A stretch of 64,000 nucleotides of DNA from an uncultured Chloroflexia bacterium (lineage in GTDB: Bacteria > Chloroflexota > Anaerolineae > B4-G1 > SLSP01): NCBI GenBank assembly GCA_963751345.1, contig CAVVUS010000038.1, forward strand, positions 32,001 through 96,000, read 5' to 3'. Under the pieces are notes generated by a model. It did no database searches, was not told where the DNA came from, and was given only the letters and a program-made list of their open reading frames with translations. Position numbers and translations under genes: made by a program. Positions 3,325 to 36,421 of this stretch are shown here, one piece after another. Within the stretch, counting starts at the first letter, position 1. Every line of letters starts with the position of its first letter.

Positions 3325-3353
3325 AGGCCACCGCTCGACGGTGGCCTCTTTTC
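3325..3353 (+). terminator. Intrinsic terminator after acpP
   Basis: Stem AGGCCACCG/CGGTGGCCT with a 5-nt loop, followed by CTTTT. Confidence 0.7.
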
Positions 3354-22825: not shown

Positions 22826-25220
22826 TCAGTCCTCCGTTCGAGGAACCTGTGGCTCGGGGAGTTCGCAGCTAAGCTCCACACCCTCGGGGTGGAGGGCCAG
22901 GAACACTTTCTCACCGGACAGGGGCAAGTCTGAGAACCGAACACCTGTTGCGGCGTAGAGGGCGTTTGCGATGGCCGGTGCTGTTTGGACCATCACATGC
23001 TCGCCTACCCCACGAGCGCCCCAGGGGCCGTCGTCGAGGGGCGTCTCGACGATGTCGCCGTGGATTTCACGCGGCGCGTCCATAGCGGTGGCGATCTTAT
23101 AGTCGACAAAGCTGGCGTTGATCGCGCGCCCCGCTGCATCGAACCGCAGTCCCTCAAACGCGGAACTCATCCCGTGGACGGCGCCGCCCTCGATCTGGGT
23201 CAGGACCAAGTCCGGGTTGATGGCCTTTCCGACGTCATACGCACTGGCGATCTTCAGGATGTCGATGGCGCCCGTCTCAGTGTCGACCTCCAAGTCCACC
23301 GCCTGGGCACCCACCGTATAGTGCACCACGGCGCGGGTCCCCTGCCCGGTCTCGGGGTCAAGCCCCGTGACGTAGGTCGGCATGAACTTCCCCGATCCTA
23401 CGACGGGTCCACCCTGCCAACCCTCGAACCCCTCGTTGGGCAGGCCGTAGATGACCATATGATTGAGGGGCTGCTCTCTCTCGGTGCGATAGGAGACGAC
23501 GACGCCATCCTTGATGTCGAGATCGTCGGGGTCCTCGTCCCAGTACTCGCGCTACGATGTCGAGTATCTTGACGCGGGCATCCTCCGCGGCAGCCTTGAC
23601 CGCGTTGCCCATCGACCACGTGAGCCGACTTGCGACTGTTTGCCACTCATATGGGCTGTACTTCGTGTCCACGGGGTTGGCCGAGACCCGGACCCAGGCG
23701 TAGGGAACGCCCAGGGCTTCTGCGGCGATCTGGGCTGCGACCGTGAACGCCCCCTGCCCGATCTCCTGGCCTCCGACGTAGACGTTGACCGTGGCGTCCT
23801 CGTTGAAGCGGACAATGGCCGAGCTGCCGGGGTTCGGCGGCATCGCGGGCGCTTTCCACATGATGGCGATCCCTCTGCCGCGCTTCTTGGTCGGGCTCGA
23901 GGGTCTGGGACTGTCCTCCCAGCCGATGGCCTGTGTGACCCTGTCAATGCAGGTGGGCAGGTCTACCTGCGGCATTGCCATCCCGGTGAGGATCGTGTCG
24001 CCCGTGCGCACGCAATTCCGGCGCCGGAAATCGGCGGGGTCCATGCCGATCCTCGTCGCGAGCTGATCCATGATCTGCTCGATGCCCCAGTGAATCTCGG
24101 GCATGCCGAATCCGCGCATCGCGCTGCCGATGGGATGGTTGGTGTAAACGCAGAGAGAATCACCTTTGACATTGGGGACGTCATAGGGGCCGGTGCAAGA
24201 GTAACCCGCAGCACGGGCGATGTTGACGCCATAGTCGTTGTAGGCGCCACCGCCGAAGTAGTAGGCCACTTCCATTGCGAGGAGACTGCCTTCAGCGTCA
24301 CATCCAATCTTGTACATCGCCACGAGGCTCTGACGGACATTGGTGGCGACGAACTCCTCCTCACGCGTCATCCGCACCTTGACCGGGCGCCCCTTCACCG
24401 CTCGCGCCAGCAGGGCGACGTTGGCCTCGATGGAGATGCCGGCCTTGCCCCCGAAACCGCCGCCGACGTAAGGCGATATCACGCGGACGTCGCCATGGGG
24501 AATGCCGAGGCTTTGGGCCAGTAGGTCGCGCTGTGCGAACGGCGACTGCGAAGCTGCCCAGACGGTGAGCTCATCAGAAGGGTCCCATCGGGCGATGGCC
24601 ACGTGGGTCTCGATCGGGGCGTGCTGGATCTGGGGTAAGGTGTACGTTCCCTCGACGATGGCAGCGCAGCGGGGCCAGGCCTCGTCCACGTCCCCCTTCC
24701 GGAGCTTGAAGTGCTCCGAGACATTGGTGCCGGGCACAGGGAAGATGAAGTTGACGACTTCGTAATCACCAAGGTCGGGATGGATCAGGGGGGCATCCGG
24801 CTGCGCGGCCTCGTAGGGATCGAAGACCGGCGGCAGCGGCTCGTAGTCCACGTGCACGAGTGCCGCGGCGCGCTCGGCAATCTCCTCGCTGACCGCGACA
24901 ACGCCGGCGACCGACTCTCCCACGTACCTCACACGGTCGTAAGCAAAGATGAAGCGATCTTTGAGATAGAGGCCCAGGCGGGTGGGGTTGTCCTGCCCGG
25001 TCACCACCGCCTTGACGCCGGGGAGCGCACGGGCCTGGCTAATATCGATGTTCTTGATCAGGCCGTGGGCGACGGGGCTGTGGATGATCTTGCCGTAGAG
25101 CAGGCCAGGCCCAAACGCCATGTCGTCCACGAACCTGGCGGAGCCTGTCACTTTGTCAACGGCGTCGACGCGCCGCACGCTTTGGCCGACAGGGCCACCT
25201 GTTTGCTTGGTGGGCATCAC
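22826..25220 (-). CDS. Xanthine dehydrogenase-family molybdopterin-binding (large) subunit, frameshifted near 23550
   Basis: RVDAVDKVTG, QHAPIETH, VGGGFGGK, AMRGFG, EIGQG, QTVASR, DVGKAINP, QIEGG and GARGVGE (catalytic Glu). Confidence 0.92.
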
Positions 25221-28183: not shown

Positions 28184-28534
28184 CTAGAGCGGCTCATACT
28201 TGAGCCCGAAGACCGGCTCGCCGGACACATAGCGTACCGGCTCCCAACTGGGCTTCAGCGCGATGCCGGTATGGATACCTTCGAGGGACTCAGCCTTGAT
28301 CTGTCCCATGGCCTTGATCCCGTTGTCGAACTGCGCAATGCCGATGATCAGGAATCGCTCGTCGAACCCCCAGGGAAGGTTGAAGATCTGCGTGTAGGCC
28401 AGCAGCGTCGCGTTGCCCTCAGGTGCGATCTCCTCGAAGTCCCTATGGTGGCACTCCAGGCATCGTTCGTGTCGTGGGTAGTGGATGTGCCCGCAGTGCT
28501 TACACTTGTACCCCGTGATCTTGATCTCACTCAT
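28184..28534 (-). CDS. DUF35 Zn-ribbon/OB-fold protein (thiolase partner)
   Basis: CKHCG...CLECH zinc ribbon followed by an OB-fold (AYTQI). It lies immediately downstream of the thiolase gene. Confidence 0.85.
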   Translation of the reverse strand: MSEIKITGYKCKHCGHIHYPRHERCLECHHRDFEEIAPEGNATLLAYTQIFNLPWGFDERFLIIGIAQFDNGIKAMGQIKAESLEGIHTGIALKPSWEPVRYVSGEPVFGLKYEPL

Positions 28535-28535
28535 C

Positions 28536-29762
28536 TCACACCTCTTCCCGGGACGCCCGCTTCAGCACCGTGGCCAGGACGTTGTTGCCGAACCCGCCGA
28601 AGTTCACGGCCAGACCCATCCTGAGCATCCTTGACCTGGCGGTCTGCCGGAAGCTCGTGTCGAAGCTGCCAGGTCAGGTCCACCACCTGTGCGACGCCGG
28701 TGGCGCCTACGGGATGCCCGCGTGCCTTGAGGCCGCCGGACACATTGATAGGGATCTTGCCCCCAAGCCGGGTCTCGCCTCCGAGGGCAGCCTTCCCACC
28801 CTCGCCCTTGGCGAAGAAGCCAACGTGCTCGCTCTCCGCGATTTCCAGGATGGTGAAGGCGTCGTGGAGTTCGGCCACGTCGACGTCCTCCGGTCTCGCC
28901 TTCGCCCGAGCAAATGCCTGTCGAGCGGCCAAGGTGACGGCCTTCAGGTCGGTTGGGTCATCACGCTCCTGTAGCGTGTGGGTGTCGGTCGCCTGTCCGA
29001 TCCCCGCGACAACCACGGGTATCCTCTTCGTCAGCTCGGCTGCCATAGCCAGCGGGCAAAGGAGCACGGCGGCAGCCCCGTCACTGACCGGGCATGCATC
29101 ATAGAGGTGCAGCGGGTCAGCGACCGTGCGGGTTGTTGACGACCGAGTGTGGGCTGTCCAGGATGCCCTCCTTGGTGATGAGCATCTCCACGTGTGCGTA
29201 GGGGTTGAGTGCGCCCATCTCCTGGTTCTTGATGGCGACGGCCACGAGCATCTCTCGGGTCAGCCCGTACCTCTCCATGTAGAGCCGGGTGAACATCCCC
29301 GCCATCCCCGGCAAAGTGATGCCGTAGGGGTACTCGACGCGAGGGTGGGTCAGCGTGGCCACGAAGTCGGTGGCACGCCAGCCCGTGACCTCGCGCATCT
29401 TCTCCCCCCCGGCAACGAGAACCACGTCGGCGTAACCCGAGGCGACAGCCTGCACCCCATTCTTGATCGGCGGAGGCCCCCGAGGCCGGCCCGTTCTCGA
29501 CGAGGTCGGCTGCCGCGGGTAACAGCGCCAGGCGGTCCACCAGCGCGCTCGCAATGCCCGTCTGGTGTTGGAGGATTCCGCCCCCCATATTGGCCACGTA
29601 GACCGCATCGACCGCGGCCTTGTTCCCCAGAGCCGCATCGTCCAGGGCCTTGAGCGAGGCATACGCCAGCATATCCACCAGGGTATCCTGGTCGCGGCGA
29701 CCAAAGGGGATCATGCCCACGCCGATGATCGCGACCTCCCTGCCGTACGTCGTGTCTGCCAT
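28536..29762 (-). CDS. SCP2/archaeal-type thiolase-fold protein lacking the nucleophilic Cys, about 3 frameshifts
   Basis: VAIIGVGM, VENGPASG (canonical VExxCASG), GGEKM, NPYAH, ELHDAF, SGGLKARGHPVGATG and C-terminal VNFGGFGNN. Assembled from ORFs 29031..29762, 29117..29704 and 28531..29067. Confidence 0.85.
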
Positions 29763-31354: not shown

Positions 31355-32773
31355 CTATCGAGTTCTTGGGTCTATGCAGACAGCCTTCAGTGCATCGAAC
31401 GCCTGTTCGAAGCATTCCCGTGGAGCGCGGACGAGTCCGGCCCCCACCATTCCGATGCCCGGTTGCTTGTGGGCGATGCCCGTGTTGATGAAGGGCAGGA
31501 TGCCTGTAGCCATCACCTTGCGCACGTCAATGCCCAGCGGCGTTCCGCGGAAGTCGAGCACGGGCACGGTGAACGACTCGTGCTCTCCAGCCGTGATCTC
31601 GTACATTTCGCTCGTGACACTCAACGCTAGGCTGGCGGTGCCGCCGACAAAGCGCACGATCGCGGGAGCTGCCGCCATCGCAAACCCTCCGAGACCGCCC
31701 GTCTCGGTGATGCTGGAGTCCCCAATGTCGGGGTTGGCATCCTCTGCTGTGAAACCCGGGAGCCACATACCATCGACGACCGGCGCGGGCGCGGTGAACC
31801 ACCGGTCGGGAAGGCCGGCAACGCGTATCCCGAAGTCGGTTCCGTTCCGCGCCATCACGGTGACCAGCGAGCTGCCCTCAACCGTCTCTGCCGGCTCCAG
31901 CATCGCCTTGACCGTAGCCATGGAGAGGTTGAGGAAGAAGTGATCGTTGCTGTCGATGAACCGGAGCACACGGCTGGCGATGGCCTTGGTTGTTACCCCG
32001 ATCAGGGTCGGCGCGATCTGGCGTATCAGGAGCGACGTGGCGGCCCGGTTGCGGTTGTGGACTTCGTCGCCCATATGCAGGGCCTGTGCGATGATGCTAC
32101 GAAGGTCGATGGGGCCGGTCTTGGCGATCGTCCGTCGCAGCGTGGGATAGAGGTCGGACTCCATCCACTTCAGGTGGTCGAGGACGTCATCGCCATAGGC
32201 CCCGTAGCGGAGCACGCGGCCCAGGCCCTCATTCTGAGTCGCGTAGGCCCTGTTGCCGAAGGTCTCGTTCTCGACGATGAACACGGGCATTGAGGGCGAG
32301 ACGATGCCGGCCATGGGCCCTACCGTGTGGTGGTGATGACAGGGGTCGAATGCGATGGCGCCGGACGCGGCGAGGTCGGCGGCGGCCTCGTACGACTCCG
32401 CCCAGCCCTCATAGACGATCGCCCCCATCACGGCGCCGCGCTGGGGCCCACACATCCGATCCCAGGTGATAGGGGGCCCGGCGTGAAGGATCATGCGTTC
32501 CTCCATACCGGGGATCGTGTTCTTGGCGACGCCCATGCCCACCAACAGCGGGCGGCTGCTGCGGATCCTATCGATGGCCTCTGCGTTGGCCGCATCGATG
32601 TCGACGCCCTGCCTGGTGGTGGTCAATGGCACAAATCCCGCTAGCGGTGGACGCCAGTCGACGTGGATCACCTCCGCACTCTGAGCCCTGAGACTCTCGC
32701 TGAAGTCCTCCAGGCCGACGTTGATGGCCCTAATCGGTTGGTCGAACAGGTCGTGGATTGCCATAGTCTTCAC
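31355..32773 (-). CDS. DUF1116 family protein (YlbE/YahG; AllG-like)
   Basis: VDWRPP, ILHAGPP, PCHHH..VGPMAG, NEGLG..LRYG, MGDEVHNRN, NDHFFLN, RNGTDFGI, DIGDSSITE and INTGIAH. Confidence 0.92.
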   Translation of the reverse strand: MKTMAIHDLFDQPIRAINVGLEDFSESLRAQSAEVIHVDWRPPLAGFVPLTTTRQGVDIDAANAEAIDRIRSSRPLLVGMGVAKNTIPGMEERMILHAGPPITWDRMCGPQRGAVMGAIVYEGWAESYEAAADLAASGAIAFDPCHHHHTVGPMAGIVSPSMPVFIVENETFGNRAYATQNEGLGRVLRYGAYGDDVLDHLKWMESDLYPTLRRTIAKTGPIDLRSIIAQALHMGDEVHNRNRAATSLLIRQIAPTLIGVTTKAIASRVLRFIDSNDHFFLNLSMATVKAMLEPAETVEGSSLVTVMARNGTDFGIRVAGLPDRWFTAPAPVVDGMWLPGFTAEDANPDIGDSSITETGGLGGFAMAAAPAIVRFVGGTASLALSVTSEMYEITAGEHESFTVPVLDFRGTPLGIDVRKVMATGILPFINTGIAHKQPGIGMVGAGLVRAPRECFEQAFDALKAVCIDPRTR

Positions 32774-32793
32774 TCCTTCCCGACAGCGGGCCG

Positions 32794-34379
32794 CTAAGCC
32801 AGGACGTAACCCACGAGGCGTGCTGCCGCGGCGTTTGTCGGTAGAACGATGACGCCGGCAGACCGCAGCACCTCTTCCTGTGCCGTGGCATTCTGCGGGT
32901 CCCCATCGGTGCCGCAGACGTGGGCGACAAAGATGATCGACCTACCTGCTTCCGCCAGGAACGACTGGGCCTCCCGAATCGCCTCCACCGCGGCGCCGGC
33001 GGGATCGGGATGCACTCCGTAGCCCAGGACGACGTCAAGATAAATGACGGCAGTTTCGGGATCGCGCGCCTCCTGCACGATGCGCCGGTTGCGGAGCGAG
33101 GGATCAAGCATCGGGTGCAGTCTCCCGACCGTGAACTCGTCCTCGCCAAGATCGATTGCCGTGTGACCCTGACTGAGCGTTCGAGTCCGGCAGCCTTGCG
33201 CTCTCGTCCACCGGCGCGTTGGACAGGATCTGGCCCTTGCCCAGCATCTTGCCCAAGATCAGCTGCGTCTCATAGCAGAAAGTGCCACCACTGAAGAGAC
33301 CCCTGAAATAGCGCTGGCGGCGATGCAGCGAGGAGCGGAGGTCCGGAGCGCGGGCCCGTAAGCCTCCTGTCGCGATCGCGAAGTTCCGTCAACGCCGCCT
33401 CCGGGTCGGAGCCCACCGCCAGTTCGGCAGCAATCACGGCGGCTTTCTCCAGCGTTGAGGCGGCGATGGCCCCGGCTTGCCTGATCGGCTTCTTCTTACC
33501 GCCCAGGAAGCAGACGACCGTGGGTTTCTCACTCTCTTTCAACTGCCCGAGCACCAACTCGGCGACCTCTGGTGCGGGAGGTTTGGACACGAGGACGAGC
33601 ACCCGGGTATCGTCGTCGGCCTGCAGTGCCTTGAGCCCCTCCAGCATCATCGTGCCACCGACGGCAGCCGAGAGGTCCCTTCCGCCGGTGCCGATCGCCT
33701 GGGTGATGCCGACACCACGCCGCGCCAATTCACAGGTCACAGCCTGGAGTCCGGTGCCGCTGGCTGCGACGATGCCGATACCTCCGGGAGTTGGGGGTGT
33801 CCTGAGAACCTGATTGGCAAAGCCAAGGGCCACCCCGTTGATAATGGCTGTGCCCGCATCGGGGCCCATCACGAGCAGGCCCCGGTCGCGACCGACCTGT
33901 TTCAGGCTTACCTCATCCTGGAGCGATACGTTGTCGCTGAAGAGGAAGACGTGTAGATTGTGGTCGAGCGCCTCGCGGGCAACACCCGCGGCGTACTGGC
34001 CCGCGACCGATATCAGCGCGATGTTGGCGTGTTCCAGTTGCCTGACGGCCCGATCGATCGTCTTGGGTGGGATTGCCCGGCCTTCTGTGCCCGGCTTCGG
34101 CGCCCGCGACGCCTTGAGGGCGCCAGAGGCATGTTCCAGGGCCGCATCGGCTGAGGCTGCAGACGCGGCCCGCACAGAAATGACGAGGTCGTCGGCCGAT
34201 GCAGCCGCCGCTTCCGGGGTCAGCAGGTCCGCATTGGTAAGGATGCCCTTGTTCGCCGCCGTTCCCATAACGACGGCGGCGTCCGTGATCCCTTCGAGGG
34301 TCAGCAGTACCTGGGCAATCTCGAGAAGCGTCATGGAGTCATAGTATTCGCCGCGTTTCACGTCGGTCTTGGTGATCAA
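32794..34379 (-). CDS. fdrA: FdrA family acyl-CoA synthetase-like protein (YahF/AllF-like), frameshifts near 33170-33360
   Basis: YYDSMTL, VMGTAANK, LISVAGQYA, FSDNV, MGPDAGT, ASGTGLQ, GTGGRDL, LVSKPP, GLFSGGTF, DLGEDEFTVGRLHPMLDP, LDVVLGYG and CGTDGDPQ. Confidence 0.92.
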
Positions 34380-35261
34380 AGTGACCTCCTCACAGCTTCA
34401 TAGCCACGTATGAATCCGTGGAGCATATCGAACCCCGACGTTGCGCCGTGGGCGAGGACGTCTGTGACAGCTCGCTTCAGATTGCCGTCCGGGCCCAGGC
34501 CCAATGTGTCCAACAATCGGTGCCATCGCTCGTCCGCCAGGCCCTCGCTTGCGGCATAGAGAAAAGCGCGACTCAACGACGTGGTGAGAGGATAGGCTGC
34601 CTGTGTGATAGCACGGCAGAGCGGCTGTCGATGCGGGTGATGTCCGGCCCACATGGCGAGCATGATGCCCGCCAACACGTCGTCCCCCGAGGGTGTCAGG
34701 CCGACGCCAAGCCCTGCCATCCGCCCGGCGGCGCTGGAGATCGCAGCAACGTCGGGTGACCCGCCCGTCGTGGGCCTGCCAAGCGCGGCTACGAGCTGCG
34801 TCAGGGAGGAGTCGAGGGCTTGAGCGGCGGCCCGCGCCTGTCGGTGAGGGGCCGACTGGGGCGCCGTGGTTACGAGTGAGCCTAGCTGTTGGAGAGCGAT
34901 CTCAGAGATGCGGAGATCCTCCCATCGCGGCCGTGGGTCCCAGACGGTCGTTCGTGCGGTGATGGTGAGCGACCAGTGACCGATCCTCAGATCCATCGGT
35001 GTCTTCCACGCGGGGACATCCCTACTCCTCTGGCCTGAGCCAGGATGTGATGGCGGGGGCAGGCGCCGCACCACGATGTGGAAGGGGCCGTTGCCAAGCT
35101 CGGGCTCGACGAGCGCCACGATCTCGTGGCCCGGTCGTGATGTGCCCAAGGCGATGAGGTCCACCGCTCTCCTGAAACGGGCCAGGCGTCTGAGAGCGAC
35201 AATCTCGGAACCAAAGCGGTCGAGAACAGGCGCGCTGATGCTGAGAACCTCTGCGTGGCAT
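34376..35261 (-). CDS. DUF2877 family protein (YlbF/YahE; AllH-like); start uncertain
   Basis: GNGP, GLGVGLTPSGDDVLAG, TTSLSRAFL and HGATSGFDMLHG. The ORF-track extension to 35494 runs through a terminator and structured RNA and is probably non-coding. Confidence 0.85.
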
Positions 35262-35293
35262 AAAACGGGCCACCGATTGGTGATCGGTGGCCC
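35262..35293 (-). terminator. Intrinsic terminator/attenuator directly upstream of the DUF2877 gene
   Basis: Minus strand reads GGGCCACCGAT-CACCA-ATCGGTGGCCC-GTTTTA (11-bp perfect stem plus U-tract). Confidence 0.75.
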
Positions 35294-35602
35294 ATAGGCA
35301 TCACTTGGGGGGGTGGGGAGCGTCGCCGCAACCGGTGGCTTGAGAGCGAGTCCAGGCCCCTGGCTCGCCGTATTCAAGCGACGATCGCTGCGGGCCCCTT
35401 CACTGCGAAGCGTCCCGGTGCGGAACTCCGCCGGGCATTTCCGTTCCCCTGGTTGGGCGTGCGTCTCGTGAAAAGGGCCTCTCTGGAGGGGCACGTGACT
35501 CTCGCTCTCGGGATAGGGAAGCTTGACTCATCACAGGCCGAATGCAGCATCCTGGGGCGGGACCGGGCCTCTTTCCTGGCGGCGCACGATCCGCTGCCCT
35601 GC
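35294..35602 (-). ncRNA. Candidate structured leader RNA/ncRNA of unknown family
   Basis: It lies between a consensus promoter and a terminator. Nested helices: GAGAGCGAG/CTCGCTCTC, GCCCCT/AGGGGC, GGCCCTTTTCAC/GTGAAGGGGCC, CCCGG/CCGGG and GCGGA/TCCGC. Confidence 0.5.
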
Positions 35603-35608
35603 AACGGA

Positions 35609-35673
35609 ATTGTAGTGAGGTGCTAAGTTTTTGTCAAGCCACGGCTTGACGTCGCGCGGCCTCGGGTTACAAT
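35609..35673. promoter_or_regulatory. Divergent sigma70 promoters (catabolic operon leader / plsC)
   Basis: Minus: TTGACA (35637-35632), 17 nt, TACAAT (35614-35609). Plus: TTGACG (35646-35651), 16 nt, TACAAT (35668-35673). Confidence 0.75.
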
Positions 35674-35680
35674 CGAAGGC

Positions 35681-36421
35681 ATGGTTGCCGCCGATCCACA
35701 CTACACTTACCCACGGCGCCGGGTCCTCCGATCGCTCATACAGCGTGTCACCCGGTTCGTCTTCGCCGTGATCTCCGACTTCCACATCGTGGGTCGCGAG
35801 AACTTGCCTCCTTCTGGGCCGTTGCTGGTCGTCAGCAACCACTTTAGTTTCCTCGACCCTGTGGCGATGCTGACCGTATCGCCATGGCCGATTGAGTTCG
35901 TGGGTGGTTTCACGACCCCCAACGCCCCAAAGGGCGTCGGGGGGTTCCGCAAGCTCTGGGGCTACTATCCTGTCTATCGAGGTACTGGGTCACAGGTTGC
36001 CTTCCGCGCGGCTCAAGCCATCTTCAACCAACACGGCGTCCTGGGCATCTTCCCGGAGGGGTCGAGCGCTCACGCCCTGCTCCGCCCGCCCAGACCTGGT
36101 GCGGCCTTCATGGCGGCCCGATCTGAGGTACCCATCCTGCCGATGGCTATGGATGGCCTGATCGATGTCTTTCCCAGGCTAAGACGTGGCCGACGCCAGC
36201 ACGTGGTCGTGCGCGTGGGCGAGCCCATCGGTCCCTTCTCGGCCCCTGGGCGCGGCCGCCAGCGCCGCGCGCGGCTGGAGGAAATCGGCCACGAGATCAT
36301 GAAGAGTATTGCTGATCTCCTGCCCGCCGAGCGTCGTGGCTACTATTCCGATGATCCCGACGTCCGGGCTGCGGCTGCGGGCCTGGACTATTTTCCGTGG
36401 GATGAAGAACCTGAAGGCTGA
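35681..36421 (+). CDS. plsC: 1-acyl-sn-glycerol-3-phosphate acyltransferase family protein
   Basis: NHFSFLD (HxxxxD), IFPEGS, GAAFMA and PILPMA. Confidence 0.85.
   Translation: MVAADPHYTYPRRRVLRSLIQRVTRFVFAVISDFHIVGRENLPPSGPLLVVSNHFSFLDPVAMLTVSPWPIEFVGGFTTPNAPKGVGGFRKLWGYYPVYRGTGSQVAFRAAQAIFNQHGVLGIFPEGSSAHALLRPPRPGAAFMAARSEVPILPMAMDGLIDVFPRLRRGRRQHVVVRVGEPIGPFSAPGRGRQRRARLEEIGHEIMKSIADLLPAERRGYYSDDPDVRAAAAGLDYFPWDEEPEG

Follow-up and report, generated by a model that had tools for sequence, protein, structure and literature searches.

A terminator-like hairpin inside the predicted AllH reading frame of an uncultured Chloroflexia bacterium: a candidate translation-coupled attenuator

The window analyzed here is a 64,000-nt stretch of an uncultured Chloroflexia bacterium (contig CAVVUS010000038.1 of assembly GCA_963751345.1, positions 32,001 to 96,000 of the forward strand; coordinates below are those of the window), in which the gene for AllH, a DUF2877 protein, opens a catabolic operon on the minus strand. 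Ahead of AllH lies an interval that a first-pass annotation, made from the sequence without database searches, had described as a promoter, a ~340-nt structured RNA, and an intrinsic terminator. Sequence comparison with relatives instead shows a promoter, a hairpin constrained at the nucleotide level, a reading frame that is open across it, no start codon after it, and an N-terminal extension that is predicted to be disordered. We read the interval as a real promoter, a short 5′ untranslated region (5′UTR), and a translated extension carrying the terminator-like hairpin, which may act together as a translation-coupled attenuator, a reading to which we give an even chance. The parts of the interval, in the order of transcription, are as follows:

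35609-35637, minus strand: sigma-70-type promoter (−35 TTGACA at 35637-35632, 17-nt spacer, −10 TACAAT at 35614-35609), predicted transcription start ~35602.
35495-35602, minus strand: predicted 5′UTR of ~107 nt; two in-frame TGA codons at 35533-35528 close the AllH frame upstream.
35492-35494, minus strand: likely AllH start codon GTG, the earliest in-frame start past the upstream stop; an alternative in-frame TTG lies at 35377-35375.
35267-35494, minus strand: N-terminal extension of AllH, 76 codons in frame, spanning most of the previously proposed structured RNA.
35267-35293, minus strand: hairpin, GGGCCACCGAT / CACCA / ATCGGTGGCCC, 27 nt with an 11-bp stem and a 5-nt loop, GPPITNRWP in the AllH frame.
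35259-35266, minus strand: U-rich tract, G TTTT ATG, with the rare codons GTT TTA and the out-of-frame ATG at 35261-35259.
34376-35266, minus strand: AllH body (DUF2877, PF11392), with the first beta-strand CHAEVLSIS at residues 79-87 of the 372-aa open reading frame (ORF) and the stop codon at 34378-34376.

The match of the ORF to the Pfam family covers residues 260-364 (E = 2.5e-23, 83.3 bits against a cut-off of 25), and homology to all relatives begins at ~35256, at residue ~4-7 of the body stretch, where two serines (S9 and S11) are invariant or nearly so in 10 AllH sequences. An AlphaFold2 model built on a 26-sequence alignment (mean pLDDT 80.5) has a confident fold from about residue 79, with pLDDT ~97 over the strand at 79-87, and leaves residues 1-74 below a pLDDT of 50. 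Between the hairpin and this first strand, the in-frame codons read GTT TTA TGC CAC GCA GAG GTT CTC, and none of ATG, GTG, TTG, CTG, ATT, ATC, or ATA occurs there in frame, either in the window or in its closest relative (L003, whose AllH is 67% identical to that of the window). The ATG at 35261-35259 belongs to another frame than AllH and is ATA in L003. We also considered a GTG further downstream, near 35170 and preceded by AGGAGA, and rejected it, as it is not conserved in L003 and would delete the first conserved strands. Given that no in-frame start lies behind the hairpin, translation of AllH most likely begins upstream of it, with the hairpin itself read as GPPITNRWP.

The upstream frame can accommodate this. 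The AllH frame is open through the hairpin up to 35527 and continues without a stop into AllH to give the 372-aa ORF, the same length as that of the public gene call. Our genus-level upstream comparison (i.e., same-genus Chloroflexia) covers nine loci with enough upstream sequence, and seven loci (the clade leaders) were used for counts of frames, stops, and starts. In all seven, an in-frame start occurs at −216 to −243 and the last 255 nt of the AllH frame are free of stops. Over the whole clade leaders, the AllH frame holds 7 stops, all at −258 or further, against 20 and 16 in the other two frames, while shuffled leaders carry a mean of 19.2 stops with a minimum of 7 in 2000 shuffles. The AllH loci outside the genus, which act as a natural control, are built differently: an in-frame stop lies 0-228 nt upstream in 51 of 52 (the exception, L119, has it at −549), and a canonical start 3-13 codons ahead of the S-x-S motif is present in almost every one. 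These 52 loci combine 23 from a metagenome scan, among whose source rows alignments starting after query residue 15 were dropped, with 29 class-level loci; one row is truncated by a contig end.

The pattern of insertions also fits with a reading frame, as the sole indel inside the extension between the window and L003 is 12 nt long, and a ~92-nt insertion that distinguishes L011 from L010 falls in the 5′UTR, outside the extension. A related strain differs by 8 listed substitutions and no indel. An in-frame codon model beats the off-frame models in the extension at all seven clade loci, by 0.08-0.19 nats per codon compared with 0.19-0.35 in the AllH body. Given the stop-free frame, the conserved position of the start, and the lack of a start downstream, we infer that the extension is translated. 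The first-pass annotation had set translation of 35262-35494 as the DUF2877 N-terminus against its own proposal of a structured RNA, and it is toward such translation that the comparative evidence points.

At the sequence level, the hairpin and the rare T-rich codons that follow it are the only conserved RNA-level element of the leader and are constrained as nucleotides. The window hairpin folds at −24.5 kcal/mol (z = −4.4; none of 200 shuffles as good), and the same 27-nt hairpin stands directly before the AllH body in six of the nine genus loci. In L003, L004, and L006 the arms show no change, and in L010 and L011 they contain a single additional A; folding of five hairpin-bearing loci (all but L011) gave −24 to −27 kcal/mol, with z-scores of −3.1 to −4.4 where tested. 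At the conserved degenerate columns of the hairpin (G, P, R, P), four lineages use the identical codon in 4 of 4 cases, compared with 2 of 54 in the AllH body. The codons behind it are rare in the genes of the window (~0% of Leu codons are TTA, and 11% of Val codons are GTT), and 4-5 T occur in the 8 nt after the hairpin in 4/4 lineages, while only 4.4% of in-frame 8-nt windows in the background contain at least four. In the window the tract reads G-UUUU-A, with 4 U, which is shorter than the criterion of the terminator scan (the scan caught only the inner 5 stem pairs), and its counterparts in relatives read GUUUCA, GUACUGUUU, GUUUUG, and UGUCUCUUUU. By its sequence, the hairpin with its tract has the anatomy of an intrinsic terminator placed inside a reading frame. 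The 11-bp terminator-like hairpin with a U-tract that the first-pass annotation had called at 35293-35262 is thus borne out in its energy, z-score, and conservation in the genus. Its placement immediately before the DUF2877 coding region is not, as the AllH frame crosses the hairpin and is not the frame of the ATG at 35261-35259.

The promoter called in the same annotation, TTGACA-17-TACAAT, likewise held up on the minus strand at 35637-35609. It matches the consensus at 11 of 12 positions in our promoter scan, which returned 3 promoter-like sites in a 3-kb region against 0.7 expected, and it is conserved in the genus, where 7/9 loci have TTGACAA-N17-TAnAnT 286-383 nt ahead of the AllH body. 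A similar promoter with a long leader also occurs in loci from other genera (L013 at −335, L014 at −336, and L030 at −262). The 5′UTR that would follow ranges from 34 to 126 nt among clade members. On this sequence comparison, all three of promoter, long leader, and hairpin are conserved.

Under the mechanism we propose, transcription would start near 35602 and ribosomes would load at the GTG at 35494. A ribosome following close behind RNA polymerase would cover or melt the hairpin, leading to read-through into the operon, and a transcript whose extension is left untranslated would end at ~35262. Expression of the whole operon (AllH, the FdrA-like protein, AllG, the cyclase, the permease, and the molybdenum hydroxylase subunits) would then depend on initiation at the leader, and the extension would be a stretch of codons leading up to the AllH fold, which starts right behind the hairpin. 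What we infer from the comparison is that the extension is translated, that transcription terminates at the hairpin, and that ribosomes relieve this termination.

Several observations weigh against this reading. The gain of the in-frame codon model partly reflects the mere absence of stops, and the codon usage of the extension is only weakly gene-like. Between the window and L003, the extension shows 3 synonymous to 38 nonsynonymous codon differences, and its mismatches are spread evenly over the codon positions (19/21/19). No amino-acid similarity was found between the extensions of different lineages (z < 2), and their composition looks like that of translated non-coding DNA. One of the leaders, L004, has no stops in any forward frame and is hence uninformative. 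Reading of the sequence revealed no clear Shine-Dalgarno element before the GTG at 35494 or its counterparts. As for the hairpin, the U-tract is short at 4 U and weaker in L003, L004, and L010; the arms are frozen in sequence rather than covarying, which a plain terminator does not require; L007 and L008 keep the open frame without a hairpin; and no conserved antiterminator partner was found for the arms, so that no switch is visible. Finally, L006 has a TTG and L004 a CTG 6 nt after the hairpin, and on these sequences an ancestral start behind the hairpin is possible.

Some of this is informative about what kind of sequence the extension may be. When L010 and L011 are compared, ~4 synonymous and ~15 nonsynonymous differences lie upstream of the hairpin (counted by eye from the alignment), and the first 40 codons after it show 3 synonymous and 0 nonsynonymous differences; in these sequences, selection shifts sharply at the hairpin. 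From the alignments and the structure model, 35494-35267 is most likely a disordered AllH extension of ~76 codons without constraint on its sequence, i.e., a translated spacer that is free to drift in sequence.

The arms of the hairpin are invariant, and not merely complementary, over four lineages whose leaders are otherwise unrelated, and its total length is constant at 27 nt. Both features would suit a sequence-specific site, either on RNA, as a stem-loop recognized by a regulatory protein, or on DNA, as a palindrome (9-bp arms, 9-bp spacer) at which a dimeric repressor binds and forms a roadblock, with the resemblance to a terminator being secondary. We hold this to be unlikely, though slightly less so than the other alternatives. 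No regulator gene adjoins the leader, the T-rich rare codons selected behind the hairpin fit a terminator, and GC-rich 9-bp arms with a free spacer are rarely seen in operators. Moreover, the motif is not repeated at other operons: in the genome of the window its pattern occurs at 4 sites per strand, compared with 2 for the control, and over 22 genus genomes at 1-5 per strand, compared with 0-3. The same near-control counts rule out a repeat family.

Outside the genus, none of the 29 class-level loci has a hairpin stronger than −18.6 kcal/mol at the position before AllH, and none of the 80 AllH loci from the metagenome scan, almost all of them distant (≤43% identity), carries it. Two loci from other genera of the family, L009 and L013, have a weaker hairpin (−16 to −17 kcal/mol, within −45 to +15 of the AllH start) at the same place, in which the 3′ arm lies over Trp-Pro codons, the start codon is inside the hairpin, and the arms are unlike those of the clade. 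In L014, from another genus, the long AllH leader begins with a terminator-like structure of a ~67-nt stem followed by CTTTTGTTTTG, within the first ~80 nt after the promoter (~−300 to −220), with a sequence unrelated to the window leader. Elsewhere in the window, at 3326-3346 on the plus strand, a hairpin with the same arms as that of AllH (GGCCACCG-CTCGA-CGGTGGCC, then TCTTTT) follows an ORF read by eye as an acyl-carrier protein, indicating that the motif occupies a normal terminator position in its own genome.

If the whole ~340-nt leader were instead untranslated, it could be a riboswitch or attenuator that senses a ligand or a protein, the hairpin then being the terminator in its expression platform. 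In keeping with this would be a long leader (190-340 nt) that follows a conserved promoter in the genus and in other genera of the family, a conserved terminator-like hairpin, a cluster without a regulator gene, and a 95%-identical block shared by the window and L003 at ~35460-35519, yet we consider it improbable. The predicted 348-nt transcript folds at −144.7 kcal/mol against a shuffle mean of −138.2 (z = −1.11), and 14/100 shuffles do as well. Rfam 15 searched against the window at gathering score returned only 3 tRNAs, all elsewhere in the window; on the leader at E ≤10, it gave three matches of 12-17 bits with thresholds of 40-50 (noise), and on the loci of six relatives at E ≤1, a single match to a microRNA model outside the leader.

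The nested long-range helices described in the first-pass annotation find no support. All of their complementary segments exist in the sequence, but the fold as a whole does not exceed shuffles and some of the pairs break in L003, where the four helices lose 3/9, 1/6, 5/11, and 1/5 pairs. In total, 10 of the 31 long-range pairs are broken, 1 is turned into G-U, and 0 are compensatory, whereas the hairpin keeps 11/11; the covariation check that the annotation had proposed thus gave nothing in favor of its helices. RNAalifold on the window and L003 marks 3 of 90 pairs as compensatory, although two sequences cannot validate a structure. No shared core emerged either, as no 6-mer is common to all five lineage leaders and the 7- to 9-mers common to three or four of the five are only the hairpin arms with adjoining bases. 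The GCCACCG segment suggested as a competitor of the terminator stem is indeed present at 35339-35333, but its pairing with the 3′ arm (−15.2) is no better than that of the shuffled leader (z = 0.1), and it reads GCAATTC in L003. Antiterminator partners of either arm are no better than shuffles in five of six leaders, and only L006 stands out (z = −3.2). Nor is there, at the window locus, an in-frame start codon with a ribosome-binding site between the hairpin and the first AllH strand, as the expression platform of a riboswitch requires; the AllH frame is kept open instead. The proposed ~340-nt structured RNA, whether a riboswitch or a 6S-like non-coding RNA (ncRNA), finds no backing in these results, while the idea of attenuation stays plausible in its translation-coupled form and is unsupported in its riboswitch form.

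Leader conservation as such was also considered as a sign of RNA-level function and dropped. The leader is 82% identical between the window and L003 (70-95% along its length), which is not evidence of constraint given that neighboring genes and spacers are equally identical (80-90%). In a 3.9-kb profile of this pair, the AllH body is the most divergent stretch, at 60-77% nucleotide identity compared with 80-90% for the acyltransferase, MFS, and FdrA-like genes. A repeat or mobile element was excluded, as the 441-nt region matches only itself in its own genome. A small conserved ORF in another frame was excluded as well: a 76-aa ORF in frame +1 is present in the window and L003, and nothing like it exists in L004, L006, L010, L011, or L008.

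Another alternative returns to the missing start codon and supposes that translation begins right behind the hairpin at a non-canonical codon, that GGTGG in the 3′ arm is a sequestered Shine-Dalgarno-like element, and that the leader is untranslated, with control exerted on translation. The TTG of L006 and the CTG of L004, each six nt after GGTGG, speak for it, as do the metagenome locus L029, which reads the same GGTGGCCC in another frame followed by an ATG, and the start codons inside the hairpins of L009 and L013 at the same place. The position reads TTA in the window, TCA in L003, and CTC in L010 and L011, however, none of which is a known start, and the 255 stop-free nt in 7/7 leaders would be left unexplained, so we regard such a start as improbable. 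It is equally hard to credit that there is no regulation at all, with a dispensable disordered tail (the extension is unconstrained, and L007 and L008 lack the hairpin) and an incidental or mRNA-stabilizing hairpin, or that the promoter makes an independent ncRNA ending at the hairpin, given that the nucleotide-level conservation of the hairpin and T-rich codons over lineages argues for a function and that an independent ncRNA would have no Rfam match and would leave AllH without a promoter-proximal start codon. None of these four alternatives explains the missing start together with the stop-free frame as simply as translation of the extension does.

Upstream, the leader is limited by a second promoter that faces the other way:

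35646-35683, plus strand: divergent promoter and start of an acyltransferase gene (TTGACG-16-TACAAT at 35646-35673; ATG at 35681).

The hexamers of both back-to-back promoters are kept in L003, L004, and L006. The acyltransferase gene looks leaderless, as the −10 TACAAT ends at 35673 and the ATG lies at 35681.

The catabolic cluster 3′ of the leader, on the minus strand, comprises by Pfam annotation AllH/DUF2877 (PF11392), an FdrA-like CoA-binding protein, and AllG (PF06545), followed in the same cluster by a cyclase, a xanthine/uracil-type permease, and the FAD, 2Fe-2S, and molybdopterin subunits of a xanthine-dehydrogenase-like enzyme. Pfam describes AllH as the DUF2877 subunit that forms part of oxamate carbamoyltransferase. 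Among the Pfam-annotated genes, no regulator was found in the cluster or adjoining the leader. AllH is present in 10/22 genomes of the genus, counting that of the window, and in 91/401 genomes sampled from the class. A scan of genome contigs with a single protein query yielded one relative only. In DNA contigs of four runs, the sequence was reproduced without indels, and one strain variant was seen; a listing of runs for a 1001-nt stretch returned none from RNA. A search of the literature on DUF2877, AllH, or oxamate carbamoyltransferase, which was not aimed at Chloroflexi leaders, returned nothing on the regulation of these genes.

Within the cluster, the FdrA-like ORF (32730-34379, minus strand) has only 369 aa, with a CoA_binding domain at residues 201-291, and is followed by a 139-aa ORF without a Pfam match. 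The TTG at 34379 that starts the FdrA-like ORF directly adjoins the stop codon of AllH (34378-34376), and this arrangement of the sequence suggests translational coupling between the two. The molybdopterin-binding large subunit (22826-25217, minus strand) is spread over two ORFs that overlap (23358-25217 and 22826-23455), with MoCoBD_2 divided between them, which could be a frameshift or an assembly error. At 28531-29759 (minus strand), a 178-aa thiolase C-terminal-like ORF overlaps a 243-aa ORF without a Pfam match; this pair may be another split gene in the cluster.

Translation-coupled attenuation has precedents. In enterobacterial attenuators of the pyrBI type, a leader ORF runs through the terminator hairpin and a ribosome close behind suppresses termination. 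The predicted AllH leader resembles these in that its ORF passes through the terminator-like hairpin. The pyrBI-type leader peptides, however, are short and end before the structural gene, with regulatory codons or U-rich pause sites, whereas neither codon runs, a pause motif, nor an antiterminator was found in the window leader, and the ORF, rather than ending as a separate short peptide, reads on into AllH. In bmrB-bmrCD of Bacillus subtilis, a case of ribosome-mediated transcriptional attenuation outlined in PMC4191407, control of the genes downstream lies with an intrinsic terminator located inside a leader ORF that is translated. By analogy, the AllH locus would have its terminator within a leader ORF, here predicted to be translated, ahead of structural genes, with translation deciding on read-through. 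As the same source presents it, bmrB stands apart as a small ORF that ends at a stop codon of its own and contains three alternative stem-loops (PMC4191407). At the AllH locus, by contrast, the predicted leader ORF passes in frame into the first enzyme subunit, and there is a single hairpin without conserved alternative pairing.

Conditional premature termination within translated regions is also described for Mycobacterium tuberculosis, where, in the outline given by bioRxiv 10.1101/2022.06.01.494293, it is mostly attributed to Rho. The AllH element has in common with those sites (bioRxiv 10.1101/2022.06.01.494293) that a premature-termination site would lie within an ORF and be tied to translation, but it looks intrinsic and is kept at a single, constant position within one gene. 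The AllH locus resembles terminator-type riboswitches, as collected in Rfam, in having its catabolic operon preceded by a promoter, a long leader, and a terminator-like hairpin; unlike them, the window leader has no aptamer match, conserved core, covariation, or start after the terminator, and is in frame and stop-free. We tentatively suggest that the locus could represent a "fused leader" attenuator, in which the terminator sits inside the frame of the first enzyme, behind ~75 codons selected only for being translatable and stop-free, and in which ribosomes loading far upstream and catching up with the polymerase gate the cluster; the frozen arms could also dock a factor.

Should the translation-coupled model fail, what remains would be a correct call of the promoter and hairpin together with a revised start for AllH; calls of DUF2877 start codons in this genus hinge on the extension. 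If the model is true, a large cluster for the catabolism of nitrogen heterocycles couples transcription to translation without a regulator protein or a riboswitch aptamer, in uncultured Chloroflexia, a group in which gene regulation is almost unstudied. As a practical caution, what looks like a long "structured leader" in a GC-rich genome may turn out to be an N-terminal extension that is in frame and unconstrained.

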